From a virus, in the IMG/VR virus record IMGVR_UViG_3300049793_000366, positions 122,865-186,864 of that record: a stretch of 64,000 nucleotides of DNA; one strand, given 5' to 3'. The first letter of the stretch is position 1. The number at the start of each line of letters is the position of its first letter. The position numbers were made by a program, and so were the translations under genes. This document shows positions 5,239 through 63,631 of this stretch, one piece after another. The notes under the pieces are model-generated. The model made no database searches. It had not been told where the DNA came from and saw only the letters and a program-made list of their open reading frames with translations.

Positions 5239-6504
5239 ATGAAAGAAGAAAAATATATCGCAGTAATGTTTCCTTACCCATCTGGTAGCGGATTGCACAT
5301 AGGTCACTTTTATAACTATGCTATAATCGATTCATATTGTCGTTATTGGCGATATAAGGGAGTTAATGTATTTCAGCCATTTGGTTATGATTCATTTGGC
5401 TTGCCTGCTGAGAATTACGCGAAGAAAGTAGGTCGAGATCCTAAAGATGTTACATATGAAAACATCGAGAGGTTCAGAGCGCAAATGGATAAGATGGACA
5501 CTCAATATGAAGAGAAGTTGATAACATCTGACCCTTCTTACCAGAAATGGACTCAGTGGTTGTTCACTAAATTGAAAGAACACGGTTTGGTTTATAAAGC
5601 TAAAGGGGATGTGAATTACTGCCCTTCTTGTGAGACAGTATTGGCTCGTGAACAGGTTAAGAATGATAAGTGTGATAGATGTTCATCTGTTGTTGAAACC
5701 AGAAGCTTGGAGCAGTGGTATTTTAAGATAACTGCTTATAAAGACCGTTTGATTAAAAACTTGGATAAGATTGATTATCCACAAAGTACGATTAATGCTC
5801 AAAGAGCTTGGTTGGAGAATTTGCACGATTGGTGTGTTTCAAGACAACGTAGTTGGGGTTGCCCTATTCCAATAGAGGGTGAAACTGATACATTGGACAC
5901 ATTTGTAGATTCATCATTCTATTATATCAGATATTGCGACCCATATAATGACAACGAAATTTGTGCTAAAGATAAGTACAAACAAGTTGATGTTTATGTA
6001 GGTGGTAATGAACACGCTTGTATGCATTTGATTTACGCGAGGTTCATCAATATGTTCTTGTATGATATTGGTGTTGTCTCAGAAGAAGAACCATTTAAAA
6101 GAGTAATACATCAAGGTATGATTTTGAACAATGGTGCTAAAATGGCTAAATCGACTGGTAATGTTATTAATCCAGATGATTATAACTCTGATGAATTGAA
6201 ATTTTATTTGATGTTCATTGGTCACTATTTCGATGGTGGTTCTTGGTCTGACCAAAACATATCTGGTATTAAACGCTTTGTCAATAGATTTAAAGAATGG
6301 ATGTCGAGAGAGGGTGATGAAACGATTGACTTGGTTAAGTTTAAAGAAACTGTATTTGGTTATACAGAAGCTTTTAAATTCAATAAGGTTGTTAGTGAAT
6401 TCATGGTGTTGGTAAATCAGAACAGAACTAAAAATATCACAAAGGAATGTAAGAAGGAGATTGTTGATATTATTAAGATTTATATGCCATCAATAGAGGT
6501 ATAA
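5239..6504 (+). CDS. leuS: leucyl-tRNA synthetase-like protein, minimised (catalytic core only; no CP1 editing domain, truncated C-terminus)
   Basis: HIGH motif (FPYPSGSGLHIGHFYNY) and KMSKS variant (AKMAKSTGN). N-terminal ~220 aa are colinear with E. coli LeuRS (QPFGYDSFGLPAE, KITAYKDRL). The sequence then passes directly to CVSRQRSWGCPIPI where CP1 normally inserts. Only 421 aa. Confidence 0.8.
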   Translation: MKEEKYIAVMFPYPSGSGLHIGHFYNYAIIDSYCRYWRYKGVNVFQPFGYDSFGLPAENYAKKVGRDPKDVTYENIERFRAQMDKMDTQYEEKLITSDPSYQKWTQWLFTKLKEHGLVYKAKGDVNYCPSCETVLAREQVKNDKCDRCSSVVETRSLEQWYFKITAYKDRLIKNLDKIDYPQSTINAQRAWLENLHDWCVSRQRSWGCPIPIEGETDTLDTFVDSSFYYIRYCDPYNDNEICAKDKYKQVDVYVGGNEHACMHLIYARFINMFLYDIGVVSEEEPFKRVIHQGMILNNGAKMAKSTGNVINPDDYNSDELKFYLMFIGHYFDGGSWSDQNISGIKRFVNRFKEWMSREGDETIDLVKFKETVFGYTEAFKFNKVVSEFMVLVNQNRTKNITKECKKEIVDIIKIYMPSIEV

Positions 6505-6535
6505 GAAAAAACCCACTCAATTGAGTGGGTTTTTA
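6505..6535. terminator. bidirectional rho-independent terminator
   Basis: A-run, then CCCACTCAA-TTGAGTGGG hairpin, then TTTTT, between convergent genes. Confidence 0.6.
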
Positions 6536-6536
6536 A

Positions 6537-6722
6537 TTAAGCTTCAGTTTTCTTAGCCTGTACATCATTTCTAACTTCTTTAAGAAGTTTGATTATGTCT
6601 TGAGCTTGTTTCCTTACTCGTGTTCCAGCGGCTTTATTACCTTTAATAAAAGTCTTTTCATAGTCTTCTTTTAATGAAGATACAAGTTCAACAAGCTTGT
6701 CGTACTTATCTAAGTTATCCAT
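6537..6722 (-). CDS. histone H1-like small basic DNA-binding protein (Bacteroidetes type)
   Basis: 61 aa. KGNKAAGTRVRKQAQDIIKLLKEVR matches the conserved core of Bacteroidetes histone H1-like proteins. Confidence 0.45.
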   Translation of the reverse strand: MDNLDKYDKLVELVSSLKEDYEKTFIKGNKAAGTRVRKQAQDIIKLLKEVRNDVQAKKTEA

Positions 6723-6777
6723 ACTAAATGTTTATTTTTTGTACAGTATATATTAAAACTACTGCCCTCTAAACACT

Positions 6778-7617
6778 TTAATAGTAATTAACAACTAAAA
6801 TTTCTTGCGAATCACCAACGTTTTTGCGTCTTGCTACTTTTTCGTAGTCATAACTAAGGTTCATTACAGTGTATTTCGATAATCTTTCCATAAAAGGATT
6901 TGGTACACCTTTGTGTATTGAAACACCACTAAAGGCGAATCTGATACCTCGTGCGTCTAAATCATCAATTGTGTCGTATAGTTGATTCTCTAATTCCTTT
7001 GACCAGAAAGCATTATAACCAGCTTCCGTTCCAATATAAGGTGGGTCAAAATAAACAAAGTCATTCTTTTTTGGCGGGTTTATAGCCAAGAGGTCAACAA
7101 ATGATAAATTGGTGAATTCAATATTTTTAGTGCTAAGTGCGTGACAGTATTTACGAATTTTTTGTATAGTGCTTTCATTGATGGCTCTTTTCCCCCATGT
7201 CTGGTTGAATTCAAATTTTTTATTAAATCGCATAAGATTATTTGTACAAGAAGAAACCAACGAGAAAAATTGATACGGATCTTTAGTCTGATTGAATTCT
7301 GCCCTTAATTTAACGAATTCTTCTTGTGAGTCTTTATCGATTTTAGATTCTAATATTTTCAATATTTCATCTTCAACAGTTTTTGTTTGTCCTGCCCTTT
7401 GTAGATTAATATAGAATTCTATTAGTGGTGTGATGATATCATTTGCTATAACCTTGTCGTAGCAACAATTTATACTAACGGCTAAACCACCAGCAAATAA
7501 ATCATAGAATTTATCAACCCCATTTGGATGAGGAAAGATAGTTAATAACTGGTTCATAAGTCTATCTTTAGAACCAGTATAATTTGTAGGTGGCTTAAGA
7601 AATCCTTGACTTATCAT
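6778..7617 (-). CDS. dam: DNA adenine methyltransferase (Dam-like N6-MTase)
   Basis: SAM motif YDLFAGGLAVS (FxGxG) and catalytic DPPY (FVYFDPPYIG). Confidence 0.8.
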   Translation of the reverse strand: MISQGFLKPPTNYTGSKDRLMNQLLTIFPHPNGVDKFYDLFAGGLAVSINCCYDKVIANDIITPLIEFYINLQRAGQTKTVEDEILKILESKIDKDSQEEFVKLRAEFNQTKDPYQFFSLVSSCTNNLMRFNKKFEFNQTWGKRAINESTIQKIRKYCHALSTKNIEFTNLSFVDLLAINPPKKNDFVYFDPPYIGTEAGYNAFWSKELENQLYDTIDDLDARGIRFAFSGVSIHKGVPNPFMERLSKYTVMNLSYDYEKVARRKNVGDSQEILVVNYY

Positions 7618-8035
7618 CTTTTCTCTTTTTAGTCATTAATTCATCAAGGTCTTTCACGATTAACATACGTTTCTCATGTTCACAACCTCTTAATTTTCTT
7701 TCCATCTCAGTGTCAAATGCTTCACATAGCTCAGAGCCGGTATTACTTGATACATCAACATCATAGATATTGTGTTTATTACTTTCATCGATAACGGTCA
7801 TTATATAACCATTGGATGAACTGTAAAGCATTATTAATAGCTCACCGTTGCGTATGTGCCTTTTGCTGGTTTTAATAGAGCAGATAAGCTCTGATTCTGA
7901 ATCTTTTACGTATAATTTGAAAAGTTCATATGCTTTCTTCTGAAGCATATTCATACCATCTTTCTTTGGTAGGTTCCAGGAAAAGAATCTTCTGGAACTA
8001 ACCATGAATTTTGATAACTTGTAATTTAAGCTCAT
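7595..8035 (-). CDS. hypothetical protein
   Basis: 146 aa ORF with TAA stop. Confidence 0.5.
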   Translation of the reverse strand: MSLNYKLSKFMVSSRRFFSWNLPKKDGMNMLQKKAYELFKLYVKDSESELICSIKTSKRHIRNGELLIMLYSSSNGYIMTVIDESNKHNIYDVDVSSNTGSELCEAFDTEMERKLRGCEHEKRMLIVKDLDELMTKKRKDDKSRIS

Positions 8036-8036
8036 T

Positions 8037-9167
8037 TTAGTATATGTTAAAGTATGACTTAATGGTTTCTATTGCACTATCTTTGTCCTTCGCGAAGTAT
8101 CTTGAAGAACCGGACACTCTTAATATCTTCAAAGAGGTCAAAAGTTTAGTAAATTCTTGAACATCTCTGTTTAAAAGTATAAATCCGTTGGTTCTACACA
8201 TATCAGAAATAGCCTTATTGGATGGTACTCTGTCATTTACCTTAGTTTCGTTCAAGTAAAGAATTTCTAAAATAGCTGAGAATTGACTCCATTTTTGATA
8301 ATTAGGGTCTCTGTCTAATTTCTGCTTCATATCTGAATATGAACGCCATTTATAATATTTGTTAAAATATACACCAACTAAGATAATAATCTCAATCAAA
8401 GTAGATATTATGATGAACATGAATGAATTGTTGCTATTCTCGGACTTTTTATTATCCGCATCTTTGATAAGATTTGCTTCGTGTGTTGTAATCTTATCAG
8501 CTAATTCTTTCTTAACATCATTTTCTTTACCTTCACTTTTTGTTACCTCAGTGCGTAAATCATCCTTTTCCTTCTTAAGGTCACGTATTCTTTGTCGCTG
8601 TTGATAAGTTAATGGGCTTGATGCTTCTAAATCTGTTTGTTCTTTATCTTTTACTTCAATCTTAGATTTATATCCTTTAATTTCTTTTTCGATATCATCA
8701 ATCTTAACATTATATACAGTAGTTAATGAATCTTTAAATTGTGTGATGTTGCTTTTTGCTTGCTCTTCAATAAGAGCAGATTTTGATGAGAATTCTTTTG
8801 CTCCGTTTAGTGAGCAGTAAAAAGAGAATGATATTACCAGTAAACTAAATAATACAAGGTTTAGCACTTCTTTTTTCAGAAGATTTTTAAATCTTAAATA
8901 CTCCATTGAAAACTTATCGAATATATCACGTTTTAGTAGTTCTAAGCCACCAAGTAATATTACTGATATAATCATCACTATTGTTTGGTTCGACTCGGAA
9001 ACAGCGTTTGTGATGATTTTGGATATGAAAAAGAAAGCAAGAAATATAGAAGCAACATTTCCAAATATTGATAGAAATAATAAGACGCGATTAATCATCT
9101 TATATGACTTGTTAAAGTCTTGCTTCTTTATCTGAGTTTCTAAATCCTTAAATTCGTTAATGTTCAT
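8037..9167 (-). CDS. hypothetical membrane protein with coiled-coil region
   Basis: Several hydrophobic helices (FLAFFFISKIITNAV, MIISVILLGG) and a K/E-rich central segment. Confidence 0.5.
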   Translation of the reverse strand: MNINEFKDLETQIKKQDFNKSYKMINRVLLFLSIFGNVASIFLAFFFISKIITNAVSESNQTIVMIISVILLGGLELLKRDIFDKFSMEYLRFKNLLKKEVLNLVLFSLLVISFSFYCSLNGAKEFSSKSALIEEQAKSNITQFKDSLTTVYNVKIDDIEKEIKGYKSKIEVKDKEQTDLEASSPLTYQQRQRIRDLKKEKDDLRTEVTKSEGKENDVKKELADKITTHEANLIKDADNKKSENSNNSFMFIIISTLIEIIILVGVYFNKYYKWRSYSDMKQKLDRDPNYQKWSQFSAILEILYLNETKVNDRVPSNKAISDMCRTNGFILLNRDVQEFTKLLTSLKILRVSGSSRYFAKDKDSAIETIKSYFNIY

Positions 9168-9523: not shown

Positions 9524-10627
9524 CTAGTACCCAATCTCGTTATCTGGTGCTTGTTCTTTTAAGCCCTTTACAACATCGACAACTCTTGCTGGATTCTTGT
9601 ATGTTTTATTTTTACCTAAGAATTTACTCAATTCATTAGCCTTTTCAACATCCAATTCTTCAAACTGAATGTCTGCTACAATTGAGTTACAATCCATGTA
9701 TTCATTTGTTATATCGTCTGAATCCTCAGTATTTGTTATCAATATGATATGTACATTTAAATGGTCTGATAGTATACCATCAACCAACTGTTTAATATTA
9801 TTGATAGACATACTAAGTCTATAATGTTGATGTTCAGTAAACATATCACAATCATCCAATAATATTATTGAATTATTATTTCTTTCTAAGAAAGTTAGAA
9901 ACTCAGGACTATTGATGGTAGCATCAATCATCACTGATGGTACGTATATTACTTGTTTTTCAACCTGAGTAGTGATATAGCTTGCGAAATTGGTTTTACC
10001 AGTTCCTCTTTCTCCCCATAATACAGTCAGTCCACGAGGTAACTTATTGATTTGTTTAATTAGCTTATTAGCTTGTGTTATAACATCATCATTATAGTAA
10101 TACTCAATGTTCTCTTTATCGGTCTGTGTTTTAAAAGGACTTAGTTCATAACCGTTCGCACCTATTCTTAGGTAGAAGTTTTTCTCTTGTGAACCACTCT
10201 CTGGTGCCAAGATAGCACTATCGAATTTATGTATAAGTTTAGTAAGTTCTTCACTATTAACCTTTGTGTGATTATAGAATACCGTAAAATTTGTTATCAC
10301 TCTTTCATCTTCTTCTGCTGAATCTAATTCAAGGAAAGAAAGATATAAATCATCGCTTAATTTAACGCAATATTTATTATTGAATATAAATCTATCACCA
10401 TCAGGTATAATCTCTGATGTTTTGTTTATATTTTTATCAGTTGATTCAAATTCATCTGTTATAATACCCCATACGGCAGGGGCATCAAATTGAGAGTAAA
10501 ATACCAATTTACTTGGTCGTAAACCAAACTCATGTGTAATAAAGAGGAAATCATTCACGTCAACATCATCCTTTGTGACATTGATGTTTAGATTGTATTC
10601 TTTATTTGTGTTCTGTTGAGACTTCAT
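9524..10627 (-). CDS. P-loop ATPase
   Basis: Walker A LWGERGTGKTNF and Walker B IILLDDCD in the C-terminal half. Stop is TAG then TAA. Confidence 0.65.
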   Translation of the reverse strand: MKSQQNTNKEYNLNINVTKDDVDVNDFLFITHEFGLRPSKLVFYSQFDAPAVWGIITDEFESTDKNINKTSEIIPDGDRFIFNNKYCVKLSDDLYLSFLELDSAEEDERVITNFTVFYNHTKVNSEELTKLIHKFDSAILAPESGSQEKNFYLRIGANGYELSPFKTQTDKENIEYYYNDDVITQANKLIKQINKLPRGLTVLWGERGTGKTNFASYITTQVEKQVIYVPSVMIDATINSPEFLTFLERNNNSIILLDDCDMFTEHQHYRLSMSINNIKQLVDGILSDHLNVHIILITNTEDSDDITNEYMDCNSIVADIQFEELDVEKANELSKFLGKNKTYKNPARVVDVVKGLKEQAPDNEIGY

Positions 10628-44374: not shown

Positions 44375-44376
44375 AT

Positions 44377-44718: not shown

Positions 44719-44734
44719 CATTTTTTTAGAAAAA

Positions 44735-45184: not shown

Positions 45185-45235
45185 AAATCAAACAACATGA
45201 AAACAACTCACGATTTGTAGATTACATTCAAAGAA

Positions 45236-49482: not shown

Positions 49483-49508
49483 TAAGTAAAACCTAAAAAC
49501 AAAAACAC

Positions 49509-49808: not shown

Positions 49809-50011
49809 TGAGACAGCAGATTCTTAAATACTTACCTATTAAAATTGCAATATTATTCTCTTTTATTACTGTGCCTCTTATCGCAGCAATATTCGTTAAT
49901 AGTGTTGTAATTTCTTACTTAATTGGTGCTATTTTTTTCGGTTTGCTACTGTTAGTTTACTATATAGTGAAGGGAAGGAAATCTCACCCAGAATTAAAAA
50001 ATAAAATTTGA
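49808..50011 (+). CDS. small membrane protein
   Basis: Two hydrophobic helices in 67 aa. Confidence 0.45.
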   Translation: MRQQILKYLPIKIAILFSFITVPLIAAIFVNSVVISYLIGAIFFGLLLLVYYIVKGRKSHPELKNKI

Positions 50012-50012
50012 A

Positions 50013-50270
50013 ATGAAAGAAGTAAGAATTCTATTAACGGAAGAAACATTCACACTTTTGTGTAAGCAGGGCTATGTTGCATATAAGAATAATATGTTTA
50101 GCGTATCTCAGATAAACATCACAAAAGCCGACTTGGAGAAGTTGATAAGCGGTGATATCATCGATAAACCACAGGATGGTGTTGACTTTAAAATTGCGTT
50201 AATGGATATCGGTTATGATAGGATTTTACCAATAATTAAACGTTCACCATTCTATGGTAATTCTATATAA
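50013..50270 (+). CDS. hypothetical protein
   Basis: 85 aa ORF. Confidence 0.45.
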   Translation: MKEVRILLTEETFTLLCKQGYVAYKNNMFSVSQINITKADLEKLISGDIIDKPQDGVDFKIALMDIGYDRILPIIKRSPFYGNSI

Positions 50271-50535
50271 AAATTTAGTATTTTGTTCAAGTATATATGG
50301 TACTAAACTGACTGGTAGAAAGGATGTGAAATTTTTAGAAGTACATTATGGTAGCGATAAAGATTTTATTGAAAAGTATCAGAAAATTTACCCAAATCAT
50401 CGAAAGGGAATATTCTTAGATGCTAGAAAACCTGTACCGAGAGATTTCAGACTCGATGTTGAACATATGATTAAGTCAGACCCACTGTTAATTCAAACAA
50501 TTCGTGATTTAAAGCTTGAAGAGTTATGTCAATAG
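50254..50535 (+). CDS. hypothetical protein
   Basis: 93 aa ORF ending in TAG. Confidence 0.45.
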   Translation: MVILYKNLVFCSSIYGTKLTGRKDVKFLEVHYGSDKDFIEKYQKIYPNHRKGIFLDARKPVPRDFRLDVEHMIKSDPLLIQTIRDLKLEELCQ

Positions 50536-50906
50536 AAGAGAAAATATTCATATATGGGTTTATGTTTATTATGCTTGGTGTTCTATACTTCATCGGATTT
50601 TTTATACGTGACTATAAACAAAAGTATCTACGTAATAAAAGAATGCAGAGGTTGAATTGGAATAAGGTATTGAAAATATTCGCGTGTGTTACTGGATTTT
50701 GTTTACTTGGTTCTATCAACAATAAAATGTTTACTTGGTATGAAGCTCCGATAATGGGATTTACTATCACTGCTGTGATTTTGTTTGCTGGTATATTTAG
50801 ACCAGAGAATGATACAAATGAGTATAAACAATTCGATAATCCTGAGTTTAAGGTATATGAGAAAGCACATCAGAGAGATAGAAAAATTAAAGATATTTTA
50901 AAATGA
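50526..50906 (+). CDS. hypothetical membrane protein
   Basis: Three hydrophobic helices in 126 aa. Confidence 0.5.
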   Translation: MSIEEKIFIYGFMFIMLGVLYFIGFFIRDYKQKYLRNKRMQRLNWNKVLKIFACVTGFCLLGSINNKMFTWYEAPIMGFTITAVILFAGIFRPENDTNEYKQFDNPEFKVYEKAHQRDRKIKDILK

Positions 50907-51457
50907 AGGTAGGATTATTCTTTGGGTCATTTAACCCAATACACTTAGGTCACTTAGAGATTGCTGAGAAATCAGCTAAATATGTAGATGAAGTTTGGTT
51001 CATTGTTTCACCTCACAATCCATTTAAGGATCCGAGTATGTTGATAAACCAAACTTCTCGATTAGAAATGGTTAAGTTAGCCGTTGAGTCTACACCGCAT
51101 TATAAAGTTAGTGATGTTGAATTTAATTTACCAACACCTACGAGAACTCATGTTACTTTAGAAAAATTAATCGAAGAACACGAGCATGAATTTTTATTGA
51201 TATTTGGTTCTGATTGTGTGAATACATTACACACATGGGAAAGAGGTGATTGGATTTTAGAAACATTTCCTATCATCGCATTTAAGAGAGAATCTGAGGA
51301 TGTAAATCCTGAAATTTATAAAAAGTTAATATCAGAAACTCATATATCATCTACGATAATACGAAATAATATTATAAATGGTTTGCCGGTTGATAGTCTT
51401 CTACCAACTTTAGTTGAGCAATACATATATAATAATGGATTATGGTCACACAAGTAA
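50903..51457 (+). CDS. nadD: nicotinate/nicotinamide mononucleotide adenylyltransferase
   Basis: GSFNPIHLGHL (HxGH nucleotidyltransferase motif) and C-terminal ISSTIIR motif. Confidence 0.8.
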   Translation: MKVGLFFGSFNPIHLGHLEIAEKSAKYVDEVWFIVSPHNPFKDPSMLINQTSRLEMVKLAVESTPHYKVSDVEFNLPTPTRTHVTLEKLIEEHEHEFLLIFGSDCVNTLHTWERGDWILETFPIIAFKRESEDVNPEIYKKLISETHISSTIIRNNIINGLPVDSLLPTLVEQYIYNNGLWSHK

Positions 51458-51711
51458 ATAAAGTACTACACTTTGATAATTCGAGAATAGAACTATCGCA
51501 AACTGGTCTTTGTTTTACTGCCTTTTTCTACACGAATGATAGCGAGAAACCTTGTTTTCATTTTAAATTTTATTCGGATGGAAAGTCGATAATTGAGGAT
51601 TTTAAGAAGGAAGCTCGTAACTATATGTCAACCAGTATATTGACTGATTTTATCAACAAAAACCCTGATGTATTACGGACAATTAATTTTGATAATTTAA
51701 TTGTTAATTGA
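51442..51711 (+). CDS. hypothetical protein
   Basis: 89 aa ORF. Confidence 0.45.
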   Translation: MVTQVNKVLHFDNSRIELSQTGLCFTAFFYTNDSEKPCFHFKFYSDGKSIIEDFKKEARNYMSTSILTDFINKNPDVLRTINFDNLIVN

Positions 51712-51730
51712 GAAAAAGTTTGTATATTTG
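51701..51730 (+). promoter_or_regulatory. Bacteroidetes-type promoter (TTG -33 element, 19-nt spacer, TATATTTG -7 element)
   Basis: TTG at 51701-03 and TATATTTG at 51723-30, about 35 nt upstream of the pncA start. Confidence 0.4.
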
Positions 51731-51765
51731 TAATTGATTAATGGACACTAAAAACCAAAACATAT

Positions 51766-52383
51766 ATGTTTAAATTAAAACCAAATACTCGTTCATTGTT
51801 CTGGAATGTTGACACTCAAGTTGACTTCATGAATTCAGAAGGTAAGTTATACGTTACTGACGCAGAACAAATCAAAGACACTTTAGCAAAAATAACCAAG
51901 TTCGCTAAAGACAACAATGTTCAGGTTGTTAATACTGCTGATTGGCATTATGCTGATTCTGCTGAGTTATCCGAAACACCTGATTTTATAAATACCTTCC
52001 CACCACACTGTATGGCTAATACGCCTGGTGCTGAGTTGATACCGGAAACAAAACCAGAAAAGTATGATTCTATCATTGATTGGAAAAATCCAAAATGTGA
52101 TATTAAAACTGACTCTACAAACTTTTTAGTCTTGAAAGATAAGTTTGATGTCTTCACTGGAAATCAGTTCACTAAAAGATTAATTGATGCTTTAAACCCA
52201 GATGTTGTTTACGTCTATGGTGTAGCTACAAATGTCTGTGTTGACTGTGCTGTTAACGGTTTACTTGATAACGGTTATAAAGTGGTTGTGTTTGAAGATG
52301 CTATTAAAGAGCTTCCAAATATACCATCACCAATACAAAATTGGATAGACAAAGGAGCAGAAATTATTAAATTCACAAACTAA
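51766..52383 (+). CDS. pncA: nicotinamidase (isochorismatase family)
   Basis: Isochorismatase-fold layout: N-terminal D..Q.DF, conserved Lys region (VLKDKFDVF), catalytic Cys in GVATNVCVDCAV. Confidence 0.75.
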   Translation: MFKLKPNTRSLFWNVDTQVDFMNSEGKLYVTDAEQIKDTLAKITKFAKDNNVQVVNTADWHYADSAELSETPDFINTFPPHCMANTPGAELIPETKPEKYDSIIDWKNPKCDIKTDSTNFLVLKDKFDVFTGNQFTKRLIDALNPDVVYVYGVATNVCVDCAVNGLLDNGYKVVVFEDAIKELPNIPSPIQNWIDKGAEIIKFTN

Positions 52384-52395
52384 AATATAAATACT

Positions 52396-53250
52396 ATGAA
52401 TACGAAAAAAGTATCAAATCACATCACCAATTGGTTAAAAGATTTTGCATTAAATACTAAACAAAACGGTTACGTTATCGGAGTATCTGGTGGAATTGAC
52501 TCCGCAGTTGTTTCGACACTATGCGCCCGTACTGGATTACCACTTATTGTTGTGAGTATGCCTATTCATCAAGAAGCTAATCAAGTTTCTCGCGCACAAG
52601 AGCATATGGATTGGTTGAAAAAAAATTATCCAAATGTAACACAGTTTGAATTTGACTTAACATCAGTTTATGATTCATTCGTAACTAAGTTAGATGGTAA
52701 AACACATTTTATTTCAAAGCCTGAGCATGATACACAGGTTGCTGATAAAATGTTCTTAACACTTGCGAATACTCGCTCTCGTTTGAGAATGACAACACTT
52801 TATTCACTTGCCGGATTAAACAATATGCTTGTTGCTGGTACTGGTAATAAAGTAGAAGACTTTGGTGTAGGATTCTTCACTAAGTATGGTGATGGTGGAA
52901 TTGATGTATCACCAATCGGTGAGTTGATGAAATCTGAGGTATACATATTGGGTGCTGAATTAGGTATAAACCAAGCAATACTTTCAGCAAGACCTACTGA
53001 TGGTCTTTGGGATGATGGTAGAACAGATGAAGACCAAATTGGTGCTACTTATGATGAACTTGAGTGGGCTATGGGTGTTCAAGAAGAATTGGGAAATAAT
53101 CCTGAGACTTTATACGAAATGAACGAAAGACAAACGATAGTGTGGAATATTTATTTGTCTCGACACACCGCTAACTCACATAAAATGCAAATGCCACCAG
53201 TTTGCTCATTAAAAGGAATTAAATATGATGAAGAAGTTGTTGCACAGTAA
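52396..53250 (+). CDS. nadE: NH3-dependent NAD+ synthetase
   Basis: PP-loop GVSGGIDSAV and GFFTKYGDGGIDVSPIG, colinear with E. coli NadE. Confidence 0.85.
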   Translation: MNTKKVSNHITNWLKDFALNTKQNGYVIGVSGGIDSAVVSTLCARTGLPLIVVSMPIHQEANQVSRAQEHMDWLKKNYPNVTQFEFDLTSVYDSFVTKLDGKTHFISKPEHDTQVADKMFLTLANTRSRLRMTTLYSLAGLNNMLVAGTGNKVEDFGVGFFTKYGDGGIDVSPIGELMKSEVYILGAELGINQAILSARPTDGLWDDGRTDEDQIGATYDELEWAMGVQEELGNNPETLYEMNERQTIVWNIYLSRHTANSHKMQMPPVCSLKGIKYDEEVVAQ

Positions 53251-53596
53251 TCTATCTGGTGTTGAGAACACCAGTGATTTAAATTATGTTTTTTCTTTAA
53301 TTAGAAAGGCATCAAATTCAATCGAAAGAACTGCTTTAATAAAAAAAGCATTGAAACTTAATGAAGAGGTTGGTGAATTATCAGCAGAAGTTTTAAGAGA
53401 AGATGGTTATAAAGACAGCACTTATACGAAAGAAGAAATTCGTAGAAGAATAATCGAAGAGGCAGTTGATTCATTAGTTATGATTGGTGATATTCTAAAC
53501 GATGTTAAAGCAACCGATTCTGAAATAATTGACTGCACCGAAGATGCTGTTACGAAATGGTTGACTAAACTCGATGAGAAGAAGAATAAAGTCTGA
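53225..53596 (+). CDS. MazG-like nucleotide pyrophosphohydrolase domain protein
   Basis: EEVGELSAEVL...EEAVDSLVMIGDIL matches the all-alpha NTP-PPase (MazG/HisE) E-x-x-E...E-x-x-D motif pair. Confidence 0.5.
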   Translation: MMKKLLHSNLSGVENTSDLNYVFSLIRKASNSIERTALIKKALKLNEEVGELSAEVLREDGYKDSTYTKEEIRRRIIEEAVDSLVMIGDILNDVKATDSEIIDCTEDAVTKWLTKLDEKKNKV

Positions 53597-53822
53597 GTGG
53601 CGTAGTGAGACTAAAAATCTCACAGAGATTGGATATCTTCAACACACCATCAATACGGTGAATGATATGATAGCAGAGACAGAGGTGTTGGTTGATAGAT
53701 TGCTCGATAAGGGTGAATTAACTGACGTTGACCGTCTTATGCTTAGAGAATTGGAAGAATATAAAGTAGGATTAAGAGAGTTAAAAGCTCAAGGAATAAA
53801 AAATTTAAAAGAAGCACTATGA
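53574..53822 (+). CDS. hypothetical protein
   Basis: 82 aa. The 5' end overlaps the previous gene, so the true start is probably an internal Met. Confidence 0.4.
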   Translation: MRRRIKSEWRSETKNLTEIGYLQHTINTVNDMIAETEVLVDRLLDKGELTDVDRLMLRELEEYKVGLRELKAQGIKNLKEAL

Positions 53823-54226
53823 AAAAATTAACAGCTTATGTTGTATTCGAAAAGGGGTACGAGTACAATGACGAAATTTATCACTTACCTGATGTAAGCG
53901 GTGGTGATCCAAAGAGAGTAACATTCTCAAAAGAAGATGCTAAGAATCTTATTACTGTGTTGAGCAGAGATTCATTCAGAGGATTGGATATTGGTAATTA
54001 TACATATGACCTAAAAGATGTAGTTGATGAAATATCTCTAAAAGAGATATTCAAAATCAATAAGTGGAAATGGGATGAAGATAATTTAACTGTTCCTGAG
54101 AAAGCAACCGATGAACAAATCGATGAGGTTATGAAATTTATTGATTTACAGTTTTATGACTTTCAGGAAGTTGAAATGGATATTGCATCAATGCGTAATG
54201 CAAAAATAGAAATAGTAGAAAGCTAA
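53819..54226 (+). CDS. hypothetical protein
   Basis: 135 aa ORF. Confidence 0.5.
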   Translation: MKKLTAYVVFEKGYEYNDEIYHLPDVSGGDPKRVTFSKEDAKNLITVLSRDSFRGLDIGNYTYDLKDVVDEISLKEIFKINKWKWDEDNLTVPEKATDEQIDEVMKFIDLQFYDFQEVEMDIASMRNAKIEIVES

Positions 54227-54762
54227 TGAATTTTAAAAATAAACCGAACCATTGTATTAGTACTGAGAATGGTCAAGTGTGGGTGTCTCGTTCGGTAGCA
54301 GTAGTGGTTACTACCTTACTACGATGTAATGATGAATTATATGCGCTTATGATTAAGCGTGGTGAGAGCGTTCATGCTTCGGGTAAATGGTGTATGCCTT
54401 GTGGTTACTTAGATTGGGATGAAACCGCGTCTGAGTGTGCTGTTAGAGAGATTTGGGAAGAATCTGGATTAGATGTTCTGGGTCTATCTAAATCTGAAAT
54501 TGAACATAATGGTTTACATAATGTGTGGGATTTAAATACTAATCCTGACTTAAATGATAGTCAAGATGTAGCTCTTCATTATTCAATAATAATATCTTCT
54601 GATAACTTTCCTAAGCTTAGTGATGAAAATGCCGAAGAGAATGAGGTAGTTGGCCTTGCGTGGGTTAAACTTTCTGAACTTGGTGAATATAACTTAGCAT
54701 TCCGTCACGACGAAAGAATAAAAAAGTTTTTGGATTACTATGAGAAGATTAAAGTTAAATAA
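54226..54762 (+). CDS. Nudix hydrolase
   Basis: Nudix box GKWCMPCGYLDWDETASECAVREIWEESGLDV (G-x5-E-x7-REUxEExGU). Confidence 0.7.
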   Translation: MNFKNKPNHCISTENGQVWVSRSVAVVVTTLLRCNDELYALMIKRGESVHASGKWCMPCGYLDWDETASECAVREIWEESGLDVLGLSKSEIEHNGLHNVWDLNTNPDLNDSQDVALHYSIIISSDNFPKLSDENAEENEVVGLAWVKLSELGEYNLAFRHDERIKKFLDYYEKIKVK

Positions 54763-54917: not shown

Positions 54918-55355
54918 ATGGAAATTTTAAATAGAAGAGCATATTACGATTATAGCATCATAGAACATTATGAAGCGGGTATTATGTTGACTGGTTCGGA
55001 GATAAAGTCAATACGAGGTGGTGAAGCAAACTTAAATGAAGCATATGTATTCATCAATAACGGCGAGGTATTCGTTAAGAATATGTACATTTCTAAATTT
55101 GAACAATCTTCATATTTGAACCATGAAGAAAAGCGTGATAGAAAATTATTACTTTCTAAAACTCAAATTTTAAAAATTGAAAAATATCTACAAACAAAAG
55201 GTACTGTGATTATACCGATAAAAGTATTTTTCAGCAAACGCTGGGCAAAACTAAAAATCGGAGTTGGTCGTGGTAAGAAAACCTACGATAAGAGAGAATC
55301 GATAAAAGAAAGAGAATCAAAAAGAGAATTGTCTCGACTGAACTCGAAAGTATAG
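54918..55355 (+). CDS. smpB: SsrA-binding protein SmpB
   Basis: Colinear with E. coli SmpB: NRRAYYDY, EAGIMLTGSEIKSIRGGEANL, GEVFV, KLKIGVGRGKKTYDKRESIKERE. Stop is TAG then TAA. Confidence 0.8.
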   Translation: MEILNRRAYYDYSIIEHYEAGIMLTGSEIKSIRGGEANLNEAYVFINNGEVFVKNMYISKFEQSSYLNHEEKRDRKLLLSKTQILKIEKYLQTKGTVIIPIKVFFSKRWAKLKIGVGRGKKTYDKRESIKERESKRELSRLNSKV

Positions 55356-59375: not shown

Positions 59376-59639
59376 ATGCAAGAAGTATTAGAGAAAGTAG
59401 CAGAAGAAATTAAAAGACCTAAGAGTAGGAGAAGAAAAAAGGTAGTAAGGCTCATCACACCGGAGTTGATATCTGATATTGAGTCTGAGATAATAAAGAT
59501 TGATTATTACTTAACTGGTAAATGCATACAGTTGCGTGGTAAGGGTTATCGTCCAAACGATGCTGATGAAGACCAACCAAAAAGACTCAGGTTAGAATAT
59601 TTAAGGGAGTTGAGGTTGAGGCTAATGCAATTGTCGTAA
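59376..59639 (+). CDS. small basic protein
   Basis: 87 aa, Arg/Lys-rich. Confidence 0.45.
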   Translation: MQEVLEKVAEEIKRPKSRRRKKVVRLITPELISDIESEIIKIDYYLTGKCIQLRGKGYRPNDADEDQPKRLRLEYLRELRLRLMQLS

Positions 59640-59993
59640 TTTATAATCACGTATATTGTCTAATCCAACTATCAATTCATTACCACTATACGTGACACCG
59701 TTTGATAGTACAAATGTTGCGTTATCATTATTTGAATCTTCATTTAGTGTAAGCTTTGAGTGGCTTATTCGATGGTCAAGTAAACCCTTATCATTATAGA
59801 ACATTTCAACGGATACCTTGTTGTTACAATTTATATTGGTTGCTGACGGGTCAATCATACTTTGTGCAATTTTATCAAAACCATCTGGTAGAGTTAATTC
59901 AATTGACATCATGAGGCGTTTGTTTTCTATCGTGAATACTTCGCCAGTTTCTTTAACTAAAGCCTGTTCTTTATTTTCCATCGATATAAACAA
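59622..59993 (-). CDS. hypothetical protein
   Basis: 123 aa ending in TAG. Its 3' end overlaps the convergent gene by ~18 nt. Confidence 0.45.
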   Translation of the reverse strand: MFISMENKEQALVKETGEVFTIENKRLMMSIELTLPDGFDKIAQSMIDPSATNINCNNKVSVEMFYNDKGLLDHRISHSKLTLNEDSNNDNATFVLSNGVTYSGNELIVGLDNIRDYKLRQLH

Positions 59994-60195
59994 TTTCTGG
60001 GTTATCTTGTGGTTTCCATCTACGTAGTGATACTATCTTGTCTGGTTCGTTAAATACACGAGCATCTGAGACTTTATCTGTCCAAATTGGACCATCTGAT
60101 TTTAGCCCAGCAAAATACATAGCATCTTTATTCATAATCCAAAAGTCTCGTTTTGGTTCTGATACTATATTAACTTTTAATTTATACTTAGACAC
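59971..60195 (-). CDS. hypothetical protein
   Basis: 74 aa ORF. Confidence 0.45.
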   Translation of the reverse strand: MSKYKLKVNIVSEPKRDFWIMNKDAMYFAGLKSDGPIWTDKVSDARVFNEPDKIVSLRRWKPQDNPEIVYIDGK

Positions 60196-61209
60196 TTATT
60201 CAGCGAATGAAAGGTTAAGCTGTTCGATTGATTGTTTCTCTTCAAGACTAATAATAGCCCTTGCTATCATTTTGTCGCATGATATAACGTGTAACTTGTC
60301 GGATTGTTTATTAACAGCTATTGTGTCTGATATAATCAATTCAGTTAATACAGAAGAGTTAAGATTCTCGATAGCATTTCCGGATAGAATACCATGTGTA
60401 GCAATAGCACGTACTGACCTAGCACCATTTTCCATTACCAACTCACTTGCTTTCTTTAAAGTACCTAATGTATCAGCCATATCATCTATGATAACAACAT
60501 TGCGGTCTTTTACATCAGCACCCATTAATTCCATTGAATGAATTTCATTTGGTTTAACTCGGCGTTTATTTATCTGAGCGAAGTGTGCTTCTGGGAAATA
60601 TTTAGCAAAGTCTAATGCTCTTTTTACACCACCTTGGTCTGGTGACATTATTGTTAGATTTTCAAGAGCAAGTGACTTGATGTAGTTTGTGAAAATTTTA
60701 CCACCATTTAAGTGAATAACTGGTATGTTGAAGAATCCTTGAATTGCAGATGCGTGTAAATCAATTGTGATGATTCGTGTTGCTCCACCTCTTTCATAGG
60801 CATCAGCCATAACCCTTGCTCCAATTGATGAACGAAGGTGGTCTACCTTATCTTGACGTGAGTAACCATAATATGGTGTCACGAGTGTTATTTCTTTAGC
60901 ACCAGCTCTTTTAGCAGCATCTAATATCAACATAGTTTCCACGATAGAATCAGAAGAACTTGTTGTTTGTATAATATAGATATCTTTACCACGCACAGAC
61001 TCATTGAAAGTTGGGAATATCTCACCATCTTTGAATTTCTCAATCTTTAAATCACCAAGACCCGTACTTTGTGGTGTCAGTAGACTTGTAGCTTGTTGCG
61101 ACAATACGATTTTATTAATACTATCAGCGAGTGATTCGCTTGATGTTCCAGAAAAAATAGTGAATGTGTTCATAATAGTGGTATTAATTTTTTGATGAAA
61201 TGTTTTCAT
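60196..61209 (-). CDS. prs: ribose-phosphate pyrophosphokinase (PRPP synthetase)
   Basis: Colinear with E. coli Prs: FKDGEIF, YYGYSRQDK, IITIDLHASAIQGFFNIPVIHL, PRPP-binding loop VVIIDDMADTLGTL. Confidence 0.85.
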   Translation of the reverse strand: MKTFHQKINTTIMNTFTIFSGTSSESLADSINKIVLSQQATSLLTPQSTGLGDLKIEKFKDGEIFPTFNESVRGKDIYIIQTTSSSDSIVETMLILDAAKRAGAKEITLVTPYYGYSRQDKVDHLRSSIGARVMADAYERGGATRIITIDLHASAIQGFFNIPVIHLNGGKIFTNYIKSLALENLTIMSPDQGGVKRALDFAKYFPEAHFAQINKRRVKPNEIHSMELMGADVKDRNVVIIDDMADTLGTLKKASELVMENGARSVRAIATHGILSGNAIENLNSSVLTELIISDTIAVNKQSDKLHVISCDKMIARAIISLEEKQSIEQLNLSFAE

Positions 61210-61705: not shown

Positions 61706-62054
61706 TTAGAACTTCATTAAGTTTGTTTCCTCTGTAAATTGACTTATTTGGTTTAGTCGTTTTATATATCTTATTAAGCCAAGTACCTAAGTCTAAAGCT
61801 TGTCTTGAATTATAATAATGTGAAGACCTCTCGCTATAAAATTTGCTATGAATATCTTCTTGTTCATGTTCCTCGAAAGAGTCCCACCATACAGGATCTA
61901 TTAGCATTTTAACCTGAGTACCAAATGTTTTTAATTGCCTTTTCTTCTCACGTCTTCTCGCTCTATCATTATGATATTGAGAATCTTCGTTGTCTTGCTT
62001 TTCTCTCCAACGTTGTACTTGAGGTTCATTTAAATATCTGTTATTTTTCATCAT
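61689..62054 (-). CDS. hypothetical basic protein
   Basis: 121 aa, Arg/Lys/Glu-rich N-terminus. Confidence 0.5.
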   Translation of the reverse strand: MMKNNRYLNEPQVQRWREKQDNEDSQYHNDRARRREKKRQLKTFGTQVKMLIDPVWWDSFEEHEQEDIHSKFYSERSSHYYNSRQALDLGTWLNKIYKTTKPNKSIYRGNKLNEVLSDEKI

Positions 62055-62685
62055 TCAGTTTTGCTTTTTTCCAATTTTTAGTCCAGTGAACATCTGTTTG
62101 TACGTGTCCTTTTCTTACCCACTTCATAACACTTGTTGAAAAATCATCGTTGTGAAATGCGTCAGCTTTTCTTATAACAATACCTTCTCTTTTTCCACCA
62201 AGTATAGACTCTTTTTGTGATAACTCTTCTACGGTGCTTCTGAGTTCTTTCTCATTGGTGATAATACCATTGAAGAGTACGGGTGTTGTCGGAAGGTCTA
62301 AAAGAAATGAATATTCTTCAACAGTAGACCATGGTACCCATATTTCACCATCGCGTACACCGAACATATAAAAATATGATTTTAGATTTGAATATTCGAT
62401 AGAGTGTATACCATACATATTCTCACCGAAGATGTAAGTATCTAAATCTATTGAAAGTTTTATGCGTTGCCATATATCCCACATTGGTCTATCCCAAGCA
62501 TTTTCGGAGTGAGCGGCATGAGAACGTCCGAATACACCGTATCTTTCAAGTGTTGTGTTGGAGCCATCAAGTTTTTCAGTTATGATAACTGGTATATTCA
62601 ATAGTGAATCTACTGAATGTGAAATACGGTCATCCGATGTAGCACCGGGTGAGAACGGTAAGTGGTATGTTCTTGCGTATTTCAT
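62041..62685 (-). CDS. ATP-dependent RNA ligase (Rnl2-like nucleotidyltransferase domain)
   Basis: Motif I EKLDGSN (KxDG), motif III IFGENMYG, motif IV REGIVIRK and motif V VMKWVRKGH, in the same order and spacing as the T4 Rnl2 NTase domain. Confidence 0.6.
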   Translation of the reverse strand: MKYARTYHLPFSPGATSDDRISHSVDSLLNIPVIITEKLDGSNTTLERYGVFGRSHAAHSENAWDRPMWDIWQRIKLSIDLDTYIFGENMYGIHSIEYSNLKSYFYMFGVRDGEIWVPWSTVEEYSFLLDLPTTPVLFNGIITNEKELRSTVEELSQKESILGGKREGIVIRKADAFHNDDFSTSVMKWVRKGHVQTDVHWTKNWKKAKLNDEK

Positions 62686-62748
62686 AGAACAAATATACGG
62701 AAAAACTATTAATTAACCAAGAATTATGGACAATAAAAAAAGACGCAA

Positions 62749-62982
62749 TTAAGCGTCTTTTTCTAATATTTCTGATAATCTTCTATCTCTATCTTCAAGT
62801 CTCTCTTCTATTATCCGTAACCTATCCGCTGCATTTCTATCCATAATTTCATACCAAGTGCCTGATTTATAGCTCATTACACGCTCTGATTTTATATCAA
62901 AGTAACAATCACCGTCCACTGGATTCGTGGGTTGTGATTGGTGGAATGTAACATCCACGAGTGTATAATCACTAATAGACAT
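62749..62982 (-). CDS. hypothetical protein
   Basis: 77 aa ORF. Confidence 0.45.
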   Translation of the reverse strand: MSISDYTLVDVTFHQSQPTNPVDGDCYFDIKSERVMSYKSGTWYEIMDRNAADRLRIIEERLEDRDRRLSEILEKDA

Positions 62983-63631
62983 TTCCTAATCCACCGCTTT
63001 GTGGACCTCCTGTTTGCTTTGGTGTGTCCATTTGAATTACAGCACGAGGTTCTGGTTTAAGTTCAACTGTGCCTGTTTCTTCATCCCATTTAACATCAGC
63101 CTTGTAGTCATTTATGATGGTTTGAACATCATCAGTTTGTGTGCTTTCATCAGTGCTTTCATTATTGTAGATGATTTCACCTAATGATGCTGGTGAATAG
63201 TTTATAGACTTTAATACTTTGTTGTCTTTGGTTCTGAATACAATGAATCTACCTTCTGATTCTTCTATGTGTGCTTCAGTGTTATCCTTCTGTTTATAAA
63301 ACTCAACTGTTTTTTGTGCTTCTTCTCGTGTCTCACAAGATTTGCTCATGTTGCTTCTGTGTACTTCATCGGATAATGCTGGGAATTTATTACCTAATCC
63401 AAATTCTAATACAGCACCGCTTAAAACATATTGTAAGTCAGCTAAGGCATCTGCAATTTCGATGATGTTGTAGTTATTAATTGCTTCTTTTAACTCATCT
63501 AATTCTTCTTGTAAAAGACTAACACGTAAGTCACATCTGTCCTGTGGTGGTATTTGTGGTGTATCTAAGATTGGAGCCTTGTTCGTCTTATGAAACTCAG
63601 CTACCTGATTGAGTGTGTCTAATTTATCCAT
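62972..63631 (-). CDS. MazG-like nucleotide pyrophosphohydrolase domain protein
   Basis: LLQEELDELKEAI...IEIADALADLQYVL matches the MazG/HisE-type EExxE...E/DxxD helical motifs. Ends TAG then TGA. Confidence 0.5.
   Translation of the reverse strand: MDKLDTLNQVAEFHKTNKAPILDTPQIPPQDRCDLRVSLLQEELDELKEAINNYNIIEIADALADLQYVLSGAVLEFGLGNKFPALSDEVHRSNMSKSCETREEAQKTVEFYKQKDNTEAHIEESEGRFIVFRTKDNKVLKSINYSPASLGEIIYNNESTDESTQTDDVQTIINDYKADVKWDEETGTVELKPEPRAVIQMDTPKQTGGPQSGGLGNVY

Follow-up and report, generated by a model that had tools for sequence, protein, structure and literature searches.

The 64-kb stretch of DNA analysed here (the window; positions 122,865 to 186,864 of the IMG/VR record IMGVR_UViG_3300049793_000366) comes from a megaphage and carries a set of genes predicted to act on translation. 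The set, called the toolkit throughout this paper, comprises a mini leucyl-tRNA synthetase (mini-LeuRS), the RNase P protein RnpA, a Pth2-fold protein, SmpB, a ribosomal protein S1 homologue, a small alarmone hydrolase (SAH), an RNA ligase domain, a polynucleotide 5'-kinase-like protein adjoined by a 5'(3')-deoxyribonucleotidase (NT5C) homologue, and a tRNA-Leu-derived element (Table 1). Homology searches gave these genes their identities and indicate that they are real and look functional, and the roles discussed below are predicted from those identities. The toolkit is probably a collection of many accessory genes that were acquired individually and act on the host translation apparatus, each plugging into an RNA partner of the host or of the phage, and not one operon-like system.

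A preliminary description, made from the letters of the window, had listed nine such features and had read them as one coordinated system, apparently serving to sustain translation against attempts of the host to shut it down. All nine are present at or near the places given there, with scores far beyond chance. Most of the individual assignments held in profile searches and three were corrected; those of the mini-LeuRS, RnpA, SmpB, the S1 homologue, the alarmone hydrolase, the RNA ligase and the kinase were upheld by profile, PDB or fold searches. The coordination was not borne out. The toolkit is spread over 58 kb and both strands, and is interleaved with large core proteins, a baseplate block, a guanylate kinase, nucleotide kinases, a dephospho-CoA kinase (CoaE) homologue, an SPFH protein and NAD salvage genes. 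In LR756502, the closest complete relative (642 kb), the homologues lie at 212 (Pth2-like), 349 (S1), 368 (SmpB), 432 (kinase), 486 (ligase) and 525 kb (RnpA). S1 alone keeps its syntenic neighbours there, and homologues of the mini-LeuRS, the alarmone hydrolase and NT5C were not found in that genome.

Table 1. Features of the window and its upstream flank (positions are those of the window unless a locus is named; aa, amino acids)
Feature	Position	Strand	Basis or remark
Mini-LeuRS, 421 aa	5239-6504	+	TIGR00396, PDB LeuRS, AlphaFold2 (AF2) fold
RnpA, 105 aa	43025-43342	+	PF00825, PDB, RNR motif KRANKRNRVKRLMR
Pth2-fold protein, 121 codons	44819-45184	+	PF01981, AF2 fold; codon 3 is TAG (44825-44827)
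HD-like protein, 199 codons	45197-45796	+	weak PF01966 HD, E 0.006; codon 8 is TAG (45218-45220)
SmpB, 145 aa	54918-55355	+	PF01668 179 bits; NF003843 186 bits
Ribosomal protein S1 homologue, 367 aa	33459-34562	-	NF004952 rpsA, PF00575
Small alarmone hydrolase, Rel/SpoT-type HD domain, 212 aa	26663-27301	+	PF13328 HD_4
P-loop polynucleotide 5'-kinase-like protein, 162 aa	28528-29016	+	AAA_33
HAD-family NT5C homologue, 149 aa	29013-29462	+	PF06941
tRNA-Leu-derived element	29469-29667	+	direct reading of the sequence
Stand-alone RNA ligase nucleotidyltransferase domain, 214 aa	62041-62685	-	PF09414
PolyA_pol-family nucleotidyltransferase (CCA-adding-type, 405 aa) beside 2H-SAK phosphoesterase (247 aa)	locus L016, 14400-16386		~2.7-4.6 kb upstream of window position 1
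D12-class adenine methyltransferase	6778-7617	-	
Guanylate kinase	22549-23115	+	
Dephospho-CoA kinase (CoaE) homologue	24247-24873	+	
SPFH/Band 7 protein, 640 aa	31047-32969	+	
NAPRTase	48283-49482	+	NAD+ cluster
CTP_transf_like/NMNAT-type protein	50903-51457	+	NAD+ cluster
Isochorismatase/nicotinamidase-type protein	51766-52383	+	NAD+ cluster
NAD synthase	52396-53250	+	NAD+ cluster
NUDIX protein	54226-54762	+	NAD+ cluster
PRPP synthetase	60196-61209	-	
MazG/PRA-PH-type nucleotide pyrophosphohydrolase	62972-63631	-	
ATATATA motif, examples of genes that it precedes	15484, 17466, 42911, 58639, 63631	-, +, -, +, -	
Examples of TAG-terminated reading frames	4601-5080, 9524-10627, 54918-55355, 62972-63631		

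The source phage

The window, part of a Logan contig of 185,316 bp, has a GC content of ~32% and contains 98 non-overlapping open reading frames (ORFs) of at least 50 codons, which span 97.6% of the sequence and of which 72 stop at TAA. When 24 kb of the window were compared by megablast with 50,697 phage records, no nucleotide match was obtained, so relatives were seen at the protein level only. A 1066-aa protein of the window is 65% identical to its counterpart in LR756502 and 62% identical to that in LR745206 (635 kb), both uncultured huge phages, with more distant relatives in a 735-kb phage, Lak phages and Tenacibaculum jumbo phages. The PHROGs matches in the window include a baseplate wedge protein and a head-decoration domain, and 50 of the 98 ORFs have homologues in LR756502, with three syntenic core blocks. 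Because of these matches, the identities of the 1066-aa protein and the shared ORFs, the window is assigned as a fragment of a Mahaphage/Lak-related megaphage (~0.7 Mb) of Bacteroidota. Proteins identical to its RnpA and Pth2-like protein are carried by a 711,805-bp JGI contig. A Bacteroidetes host had been guessed in the preliminary description, and the guess fits the RnpA relatives, which are Bacteroidota, and the presence of TAnnTTTG promoter boxes.

RNase P protein and its RNA partner

The phage RnpA starts at the ATG given in Table 1, and the longer ORF that begins with TTG adds a hydrophobic artefact. It matches PF00825 with 50.1 bits (E 3e-13; cutoff 22.3) and TIGR00188 with 36.6 bits, just under the cutoff of 38.35. 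All nine of its PDB matches are RNase P proteins, with whose RNR motif KRANKRNRVKRLMR aligns, and the identical protein of the 711,805-bp contig is annotated by JGI as 'ribonuclease P protein component'. The nearest cellular proteins are almost all from Bacteroidota (28-38% identity). Homologues occur in 2 of the 50,697 phage records, PHROG has no family for the protein, and no paper on a phage RnpA was found in the literature. RnpA is the sole toolkit component that we could not find described before.

No tRNA, tmRNA, RNase P RNA or T-box was detected in the window by ARAGORN or by Rfam scans at gathering and E-value thresholds; a suppressor tRNA(CUA) lies outside it (see below). Neither tmRNA nor RNase P RNA was found in 20 kb of the window flanks, in all 642 kb of LR756502 (ARAGORN and Rfam), or in 78 kb around eight viral RnpA genes in IMG/VR. 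In three of these eight loci RnpA lies inside same-strand tRNA arrays, and 49 Rfam tRNA matches, summed over the eight, fall within 5 kb of the gene; in one of the loci (L035) a tRNA(CUA) is located 3.2 kb from RnpA. LR756502 itself has ~46 tRNAs, with array spacers of a few nucleotides. Given the RNR motif, the Bacteroidota-like sequence and the lack of a detected phage RNase P RNA, the phage RnpA would bind the RNase P ribozyme of the host and help to mature the tightly packed tRNA arrays of the phage. An orphan RnpA, often placed in tRNA arrays, suggests that a virus may supply the protein cofactor of a host ribozyme.

Directly 3' of RnpA, two of the IMG/VR loci (L032, 5730-5950; L034, 5442-5907) contain five oversized (106-116 nt) type-II-like tRNA genes that have the D arm GTGGTGAAATTGGTAAACAC in common. 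Some of their anticodon loops look like UUA or UCA by eye, and these genes are possible stop-codon readers.

SmpB, S1 homologue and alarmone hydrolase

SmpB is full-length and scores above the equivalog cutoff of NF003843 (130 bits), and its C-terminal tail is intact (YDKRESIKERE; GKKTYDKRESIKERESKRELSRLNSKV), the D-K-R motif included. Its stop codon TAG is followed at once by TAA. Homologues are found in Lak phages and in the LR75650x genomes. Its partner tmRNA was detected by ARAGORN and Rfam neither in the window and its flanks nor in LR756502. With the tail intact and no phage tmRNA detected in LR756502, the phage SmpB is expected to work with host tmRNA on stalled ribosomes.

The S1-like protein of the preliminary description does have rpsA homology: NF004952 aligns with 120 bits (residues 38-366 against profile positions 32-373 of 580). 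This is far from the cutoff of 524 bits, and the protein corresponds to about the first four domains of the six-domain bacterial S1, so that it is best called an S1 homologue and not a full-length orthologue. PHROG has no family for it. In LR756502 the homologue (348268-349326, 54% identity) is syntenic, with the same large neighbour proteins. As a conserved core gene, it might bias the recruitment of mRNA.

The alarmone hydrolase matches PF13328 HD_4 with 33.6 bits (cutoff 27.2) and the N-terminal hydrolase part of TIGR00691 (E 8e-13), and the motifs predicted to bind metal and to catalyse are present (THQ..., LHDVPED and GDRMHN). Its PDB matches are Rel hydrolase domains (E 9e-8) and Mesh1 (E 1e-3), and its PHROGs are phrog_15275 and phrog_990. 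The enzyme may remove (p)ppGpp, (p)ppApp, or the 3'-pyrophosphate placed on tRNA by toxSAS.

Mini leucyl-tRNA synthetase

The mini-LeuRS is matched by TIGR00396 leuS_bact in four stretches (393 bits, E 3e-117), against 151, 148 and 143 bits for the related valS, ileS and metG models. The score is below the leuS_bact equivalog cutoff of 548 bits, and the protein is about half as long as a full-length LeuRS (421 vs ~860 aa). The catalytic Rossmann core is kept and both signatures, HIGH (LHIGH) and KMSKS (KMAKS), are intact, with ~120 residues remaining after the latter. In the alignment with the Thermus thermophilus enzyme, residues 34-~224, 418-436, 487-578 and, weakly, 636-698 of the latter are covered, and residues ~225-417, 437-486, 579-635 and those beyond ~700 are unmatched. 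The CP1 editing domain, the leucine-specific insert, the C-terminal tRNA-binding domain and a full anticodon-binding domain are therefore missing, and a short helical tail is present. The same absence of the CP1 segment was seen in the PDB LeuRS match (E 5e-87). An AF2 model (pLDDT 83) has the CP1-less LeuRS of Mycoplasma mobile (3ziu) as its best PDB match (TMq 0.88-0.89, 32% identity), and every one of the top 50 fold matches is a LeuRS.

More than 120 metagenomic homologues were found, on contigs of up to 779 kb, many of 0.4-0.78 Mb. Because they share the length (412-440 aa) and 72-84% identity, the mini-LeuRS appears to be a conserved megaphage protein and not a fragment. The same identities, together with the ~40 invariant or near-invariant positions among 231 members of the Pth2-like family, indicate purifying selection on both. 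The protein would activate leucine and probably charge tRNA-Leu, for which three to six genes are found in related phages. For tRNA binding, the LeuRS of Escherichia coli needs domains that the mini-LeuRS lacks, and charging by the phage protein is uncertain for this reason. A conserved 420-aa LeuRS without the editing and tRNA-binding appendages would be a natural minimal synthetase, which may mischarge tRNA or have a new role.

Upstream of the gene come, in order, a full promoter motif of the Bacteroidetes type (5069-5100), the GC-rich hairpin CCCTTGGCACCAAAAATGTCAAGGG (~5183-5207) and a T-run (region 5069-5214), ending ~25 nt before the LeuRS start codon. The hairpin, for whose region Rfam gave no match, may terminate the upstream gene or serve LeuRS as a leader or attenuator.

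RNA-repair candidates

The kinase-like protein matches AAA_33 (E 6e-17) and phrog_505, polynucleotide kinase, as well as phrog_6931. Its sole PDB match is Pnkp1 (E 6e-7) of the Pnkp1-Rnl-Hen1 complex of Capnocytophaga, an RNA-repair complex of Bacteroidota. The NT5C start overlaps the kinase stop by 4 nt, and the two genes had been described as a kinase/phosphatase pair. The Pnk-like kinase stands, with the P-loop part of a T4-type Pnkp present. The supposed phosphatase matches the nucleotidases of deoxyribonucleoside monophosphates (dNMP) and not the Pnkp phosphatases (PF06941, 52 bits; PDB cdN/mdN, E 1e-17; phrog_2643), and probably acts on the nucleotide pool, not on RNA as a 3'-phosphatase. 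The kinase adjoins NT5C in none of seven IMG/VR homologue loci. It is thus doubtful, given this family membership and the missing adjacency, that the two proteins form a split Pnkp.

The RNA ligase matches PF09414 with 91 bits (cutoff 27), shows the lysine motif I (KxDGxN) as EKLDGSN, and falls in phrog_34045 and phrog_24030 'RNA ligase' (E 1e-40). It is a bare domain that lacks a C-terminal domain, and its homologue in LR756502, at 485.6 kb, is 67% identical. A PDB sequence search with the ligase returned no true match and one spurious hemocyanin. Outside the window, the CCA-adding-type enzyme and the neighbouring 2H-SAK phosphoesterase are two further tRNA-repair or tRNA-maturation genes. 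Together with these two, the kinase, the RNA ligase and the HD-like phosphoesterase candidate described below could heal and seal cleaved tRNA.

tRNA-Leu-derived element

Immediately downstream of NT5C, a tRNA-like RNA had been noted. Its tRNA-Leu-like parts are confirmed: a 7-bp acceptor stem, a type-II D arm and a T arm, and ends that align to tRNA-Leu genes of a related phage (locus L020). In place of the anticodon and variable arms there are ~137 nt, and the element is not a recognizable tRNA. ARAGORN made no call at default settings and gave a doubtful 'Phe + 115-nt intron' when introns were allowed, and the Rfam tRNA model scored 13 bits, where the gathering score is 29. The z-score of its fold is -1.7. 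Homologues were found neither by blastn against phages, nor by an end-anchored pattern in IMG/VR, nor downstream of NT5C homologues. With an acceptor stem and a T arm around a long insert, the element was also considered as a tmRNA. This reading was rejected: no tmRNA was called, the best register lacks an Ala-type G3:U70 pair, a tag ORF is missing, and the ends are tRNA-Leu-like. Because NT5C homologues abut tRNA arrays in three of the seven IMG/VR loci, it is most simply explained as a derivative or relic of a tRNA array; alternatively, it may be an oversized tRNA-like RNA.

The Pth2-fold and HD-like genes and their leading amber codons

The peptidyl-tRNA hydrolase PTH2 of the preliminary description has the fold but a different start. 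The longest ORF under the standard code (44894-45184, GTG start) misses the N-terminus of the family (PF01981, 29.6 bits; cutoff 23). Upstream and in frame, the gene reads ATG AAG TAG ATT, after which KLVTVTRADI aligns to archaeal Pth2 from residue 2 onward; it is preceded by TTTG-N20-TATATTTG (44737-44768). The leading TAG is conserved in LR756502 (ATG AAA AAT TAG ATT), LR745206 (ATG AAC AAT TAG ATT) and LR756504 (ATG ACA TAG ATT), and homologues free of TAG begin with MKQINN, MNNQIK or MKNQIN, with Gln at the TAG position. The AF2 model of a 79%-identical homologue (P0010) has a pLDDT of 91, and its top 15 PDB matches are all Pth2/Bit1 (TM 0.58-0.76, probability 1.0).

When aligned by MAFFT with two canonical Pth2 proteins of phages, the protein has GY at the position of their GK, and a gap where they have the D-x-G-x-T segment [D(A/E)(A/G)RT]. 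The Tyr is near-invariant among 52 members of the family. The Lys of G-K and the Asp of D-x-G-x-T are reportedly important catalytic residues in the Pth2 of Sulfolobus solfataricus. With the Lys replaced and the Asp motif gapped, peptidyl-tRNA hydrolase activity of the phage protein is not assured.

The HD-like gene next to it has the same layout, with ATT directly after its TAG. Its tblastn homologues begin at residues 8-10, upstream of the first standard-code ATG, and the LR745206 gene reads ATG AAT ACT TAG ATT (TAG is codon 4). It adjoins the Pth2-like gene in the cultured jumbo phages CBB, GAP32, pT24 and XbC2, forming a conserved two-gene module, and phrog_14850 is a fusion of the C-terminal half of a Pth2-like protein with an HD-like protein. 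In phrog_6931, an N-terminal domain similar to the HD-like protein is joined with a kinase domain. The HD-like protein is tentatively a candidate RNA-end phosphoesterase, and would be a better candidate for end healing than NT5C. Gene callers that use the standard code miss or shorten both genes: the in-frame TAG leaves 44718-45248 empty in the Logan annotation and reduces the JGI call to a 96-aa piece of the Pth2-like protein.

On the same contig, ~1.16-1.23 kb upstream of window position 1, a suppressor tRNA(CUA) is found on the minus strand of the locus (L016, 12908-12980; ARAGORN 'tRNA-Pyl(cta)', Rfam tRNA 62 bits). If the leading TAG of both genes is read as Gln, their translation would therefore depend on amber suppression. 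Alternatively, a mini-ORF of 2-7 codons could be followed by re-initiation at the invariant AUU. Two genes gated in this way at their very start would be a compact reporter of the timing and mode of a switch of TAG from stop to Gln. Other extensions of the ATG/GTG-x-TAG type (7595-8077, 62749-62994, 1839-2837 and 59601-60095) were considered and attributed to chance, as an A-rich leader and supporting homology are both lacking. A back-up stop (TAA or TGA) immediately follows 4 of the 14 TAG-terminated ORFs, SmpB among them, where base composition predicts ~6% per ORF, which is consistent with selection in a genome that has an amber suppressor.

Two further RNA observations belong here. A 66-nt tRNA-like sequence that seems to lack a normal anticodon arm lies 120 nt from the suppressor tRNA (L016, 13099-13164; Rfam 53 bits, no ARAGORN call). 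LR756502 has a full-length GOLLD RNA (RF02032, 275 bits; LR756502.1 434685-435091, equal to L010 36285-36691); the gene directly after it is tRNA-like, and its anticodon loop seems to have 6 nt (ARAGORN 'tRNA-???').

These findings raise an alternative account of the toolkit, which overlaps the account by individual acquisition and to which we give clearly lower, though real, credence: that the clade runs a partial genetic-code switch and that the toolkit serves the switch, not the evasion of defence. The suppressor tRNA would read TAG as Gln; RnpA would retarget host RNase P to mature the phage's own tRNAs, the suppressor and odd-shaped ones included; the leading TAG would turn the Pth2-fold and HD-like genes on only once suppression is active; and SmpB, host tmRNA and this amber-gated module would clear the stalled ribosomes and the peptidyl-tRNA that arise when stop codons of host and phage mRNAs are read through. 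The suppressor tRNA on the same contig, the leading TAG kept in four genomes for the Pth2-like gene and in two for the HD-like gene and aligned with Gln, and the excess of back-up stops agree with this. So do the tRNA(CUA) near RnpA on one viral contig and the concentration of genuine phage SmpB homologues in TAG-recoded Lak phages and their relatives. Suppressor tRNAs are also known to raise tmRNA tagging in E. coli. However, no suppressor tRNA was detected in LR756502, by relaxed ARAGORN and by reading of the Rfam-only tRNA matches, despite the same leading TAG. The in-frame TAG is limited to 2 of ~95 window ORFs, so that the read-through load may be small; re-initiation after the mini-ORF would do without suppression, and the Pth2-fold protein may not hydrolyse peptidyl-tRNA. 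If a code switch served by the toolkit were real, a phage protein subunit that hijacks a host ribozyme and auxiliary genes gated by amber codons would be mechanisms that we have not found described.

Expression signals and the case for one system

Among the toolkit genes, a distinctive promoter layout is common to the kinase, RnpA and the RNA ligase only: a TAnnTTTG box lies 4, 5 and 4 nt, respectively, before the ATG, where ~0.13 cases would be expected by chance. The full TTTG-N19-20-TAnnTTTG motif precedes LeuRS and the Pth2-like gene. As a signal shared by the toolkit, the full promoter (TTTG-N17-21-TAnnTTTG) was rejected, since its three matches equal the chance count, though all are intergenic and correctly oriented. 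A different motif, ATATATA/TATATAT, occurs within 70 nt upstream of 26 of the 92 ATG-started ORFs, compared with 2.7% of random 70-nt windows. The genes so marked are mostly large ones of the core or structural kind. The motif is likely to be specific to the phage, as a promoter or initiation signal that differs from the host-like TAnnTTTG box. On this picture, the accessory genes fall into one or two expression classes and do not make up a module.

The coordinated system of the preliminary description, a counter-defence that sustains translation under tRNA cleavage, ribosome stalling and alarmones, is less probable than a code switch and in our judgement unlikely. Every component that it calls for is present, including the kinase, the ligase, the HD-like parts and, upstream of the window, the 2H-SAK phosphoesterase and the CCA-adding enzyme, and three of the genes have the promoter layout in common. 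SAHs are known to reverse the pyrophosphorylation of tRNA by toxSAS, and the jumbo-phage survey of Iyer et al. (PMC7824862) proposes the same logic. Nevertheless, the genes form no operon, stand on both strands with unrelated genes between them, and are non-syntenic in LR756502, where three are absent. The adjacency of kinase and NT5C is not conserved, S1 sits in a conserved core block and not in an accessory island, and nothing in the window ties SmpB, LeuRS or RnpA to defence.

That the genes are functionless remnants of acquired host genes is very improbable. In favour of this reading are the loss of about half of the bacterial protein in LeuRS, the TAG that breaks the PTH2 ORF when the standard code is applied, and a tRNA-Leu-like element that is not callable as a tRNA. 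Against it, the mini-LeuRS keeps its length, sequence and both signatures in >120 homologues, the TAG position is conserved and aligned with Gln, the 231-member Pth2-like family is strongly conserved with a confident fold, and RnpA and SmpB retain their functional motifs; the element is the only plausible relic left.

The account by individual acquisition, which remains the preferred one, also has points against it. The nine genes are packed more densely here (58 kb) than the six homologues in LR756502 (314 kb), and the TAnnTTTG boxes imply that some co-regulation of the kinase, RnpA and the RNA ligase exists. The partner-RNA scans covered the window and its flanks, LR756502 and the eight RnpA loci, and a phage tmRNA or RNase P RNA may lie in the other ~630 kb of the phage's own genome; LR756502 was scanned in pieces that overlap by just 200 nt, and a divergent tmRNA or RNase P RNA could score below the Rfam thresholds. 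Every functional step is drawn from homology and genomic context, and two of the steps, charging by the mini-LeuRS and hydrolysis by the Pth2-fold protein, are weakened by the missing domains and catalytic residues described above.

Neighbouring genes

The genes at 48283-54762 on the plus strand form a salvage and synthesis cluster for NAD+ that looks complete, and SmpB is the second gene past it. The cluster resembles phage NAD+ reconstitution pathways proposed to act against NAD-depleting defences. The other enzymes of nucleotide and cofactor metabolism, the adenine methyltransferase and the SPFH protein are listed in Table 1. Four small ORFs downstream of RnpA (43327-44718) gave no Pfam or PHROG match.

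Comparison with known systems

The combination of genes is less new than the preliminary description had supposed, since aminoacyl-tRNA synthetases, S1, SmpB, Pth2, alarmone hydrolase and RNA repair have been published for huge phages (PMC7162821; PMC7824862). Al-Shayeb et al. (2020; PMC7162821) reported huge phages with aminoacyl-tRNA synthetases, S1-domain proteins, SmpB and tmRNAs, tRNA arrays and tRNA-ligation genes, and in their supplementary GenBank files PTH2 is annotated for many genomes and a 422-aa protein that begins MEEKEKYVAVMFPYPSGSGLHIGH is named 'leucyl-tRNA synthetase'. RNase P protein is absent from the main text of that paper and was not found in the 200 supplementary files searched. 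In the survey of Iyer et al. (2021; PMC7824862), Pth2, an alarmone phosphodiesterase of the HD type, ATP-grasp RNA ligases with polynucleotide kinase and HAD, 2H or HD phosphoesterases, and tRNAs are interpreted as jumbo-phage counter-defence, and neither SmpB nor RNase P appears there. The window reveals no new system and adds an example of the reach of the largest phages into host translation. RnpA and the two genes with an amber codon in frame at their start are its less expected parts. Worth following up are the orphan RnpA with its link to tRNA arrays, the minimal LeuRS, which is conserved, and the Pth2-fold/HD-like pair with its amber gating.

The phage belongs to the Mahaphage/Lak clade of Al-Shayeb et al. 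(PMC7162821), from whose study its best matches, LR756502 and LR745206, come. It differs in that SmpB is accompanied by tmRNA in the phages described there, whereas no tmRNA was detected in LR756502. Compared with the jumbo-phage sets of Iyer et al. (PMC7824862), the Pth2-fold protein here has Tyr for Lys and is amber-gated, and its conserved link to an HD-like protein, as a neighbour or fused (phrog_14850), was not met in the passages of that survey that were read.

The phage RnpA resembles the protein of the bacterial RNase P holoenzyme in its size, its Pfam family and the RNR motif, through which the RNA subunit is contacted, and aligns to the RNase P proteins of Bacillus subtilis, Staphylococcus aureus and Thermotoga maritima. 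Unlike bacterial rnpA, the phage gene does not adjoin rpmH or yidC, and its product is only 28-38% identical to the RnpA proteins of Bacteroidota. The mini-LeuRS and the M. mobile LeuRS (3ziu), its third-best sequence match, both lack CP1; the phage protein is ~200 residues shorter and is also without the leucine-specific insert and the C-terminal tRNA-binding domain.

Like T4 Pnkp with Rnl1/Rnl2, the bacterial Pnkp1-Rnl-Hen1 complex and HD-Pnk, the phage has a P-loop kinase homologue and a PF09414 domain, and the link of its HD-like protein with kinase domains in phrog_6931 recalls HD-Pnk. In contrast to these repair sets, the phage genes lie 17-34 kb apart on different strands, the ligase is bare, the HAD protein is of the dNMP nucleotidase subfamily, and no Hen1 was found for the phage.

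Lak and other gut phages use suppression of TAG to Gln (Borges et al.; 10.1101/2021.08.26.457843). With these and the crAss-like phages the present phage has in common the alignment of TAG with Gln, a tRNA(CUA), a low GC content, a preference for TAA and Bacteroidota hosts. The recoding described by Borges et al. differs from what is seen here, where it would be minimal (2 of ~95 ORFs), lies outside structural and lysis genes, and is placed at codons 3-8 of two adjacent auxiliary genes, while TAG still serves as the stop of 14 window ORFs.

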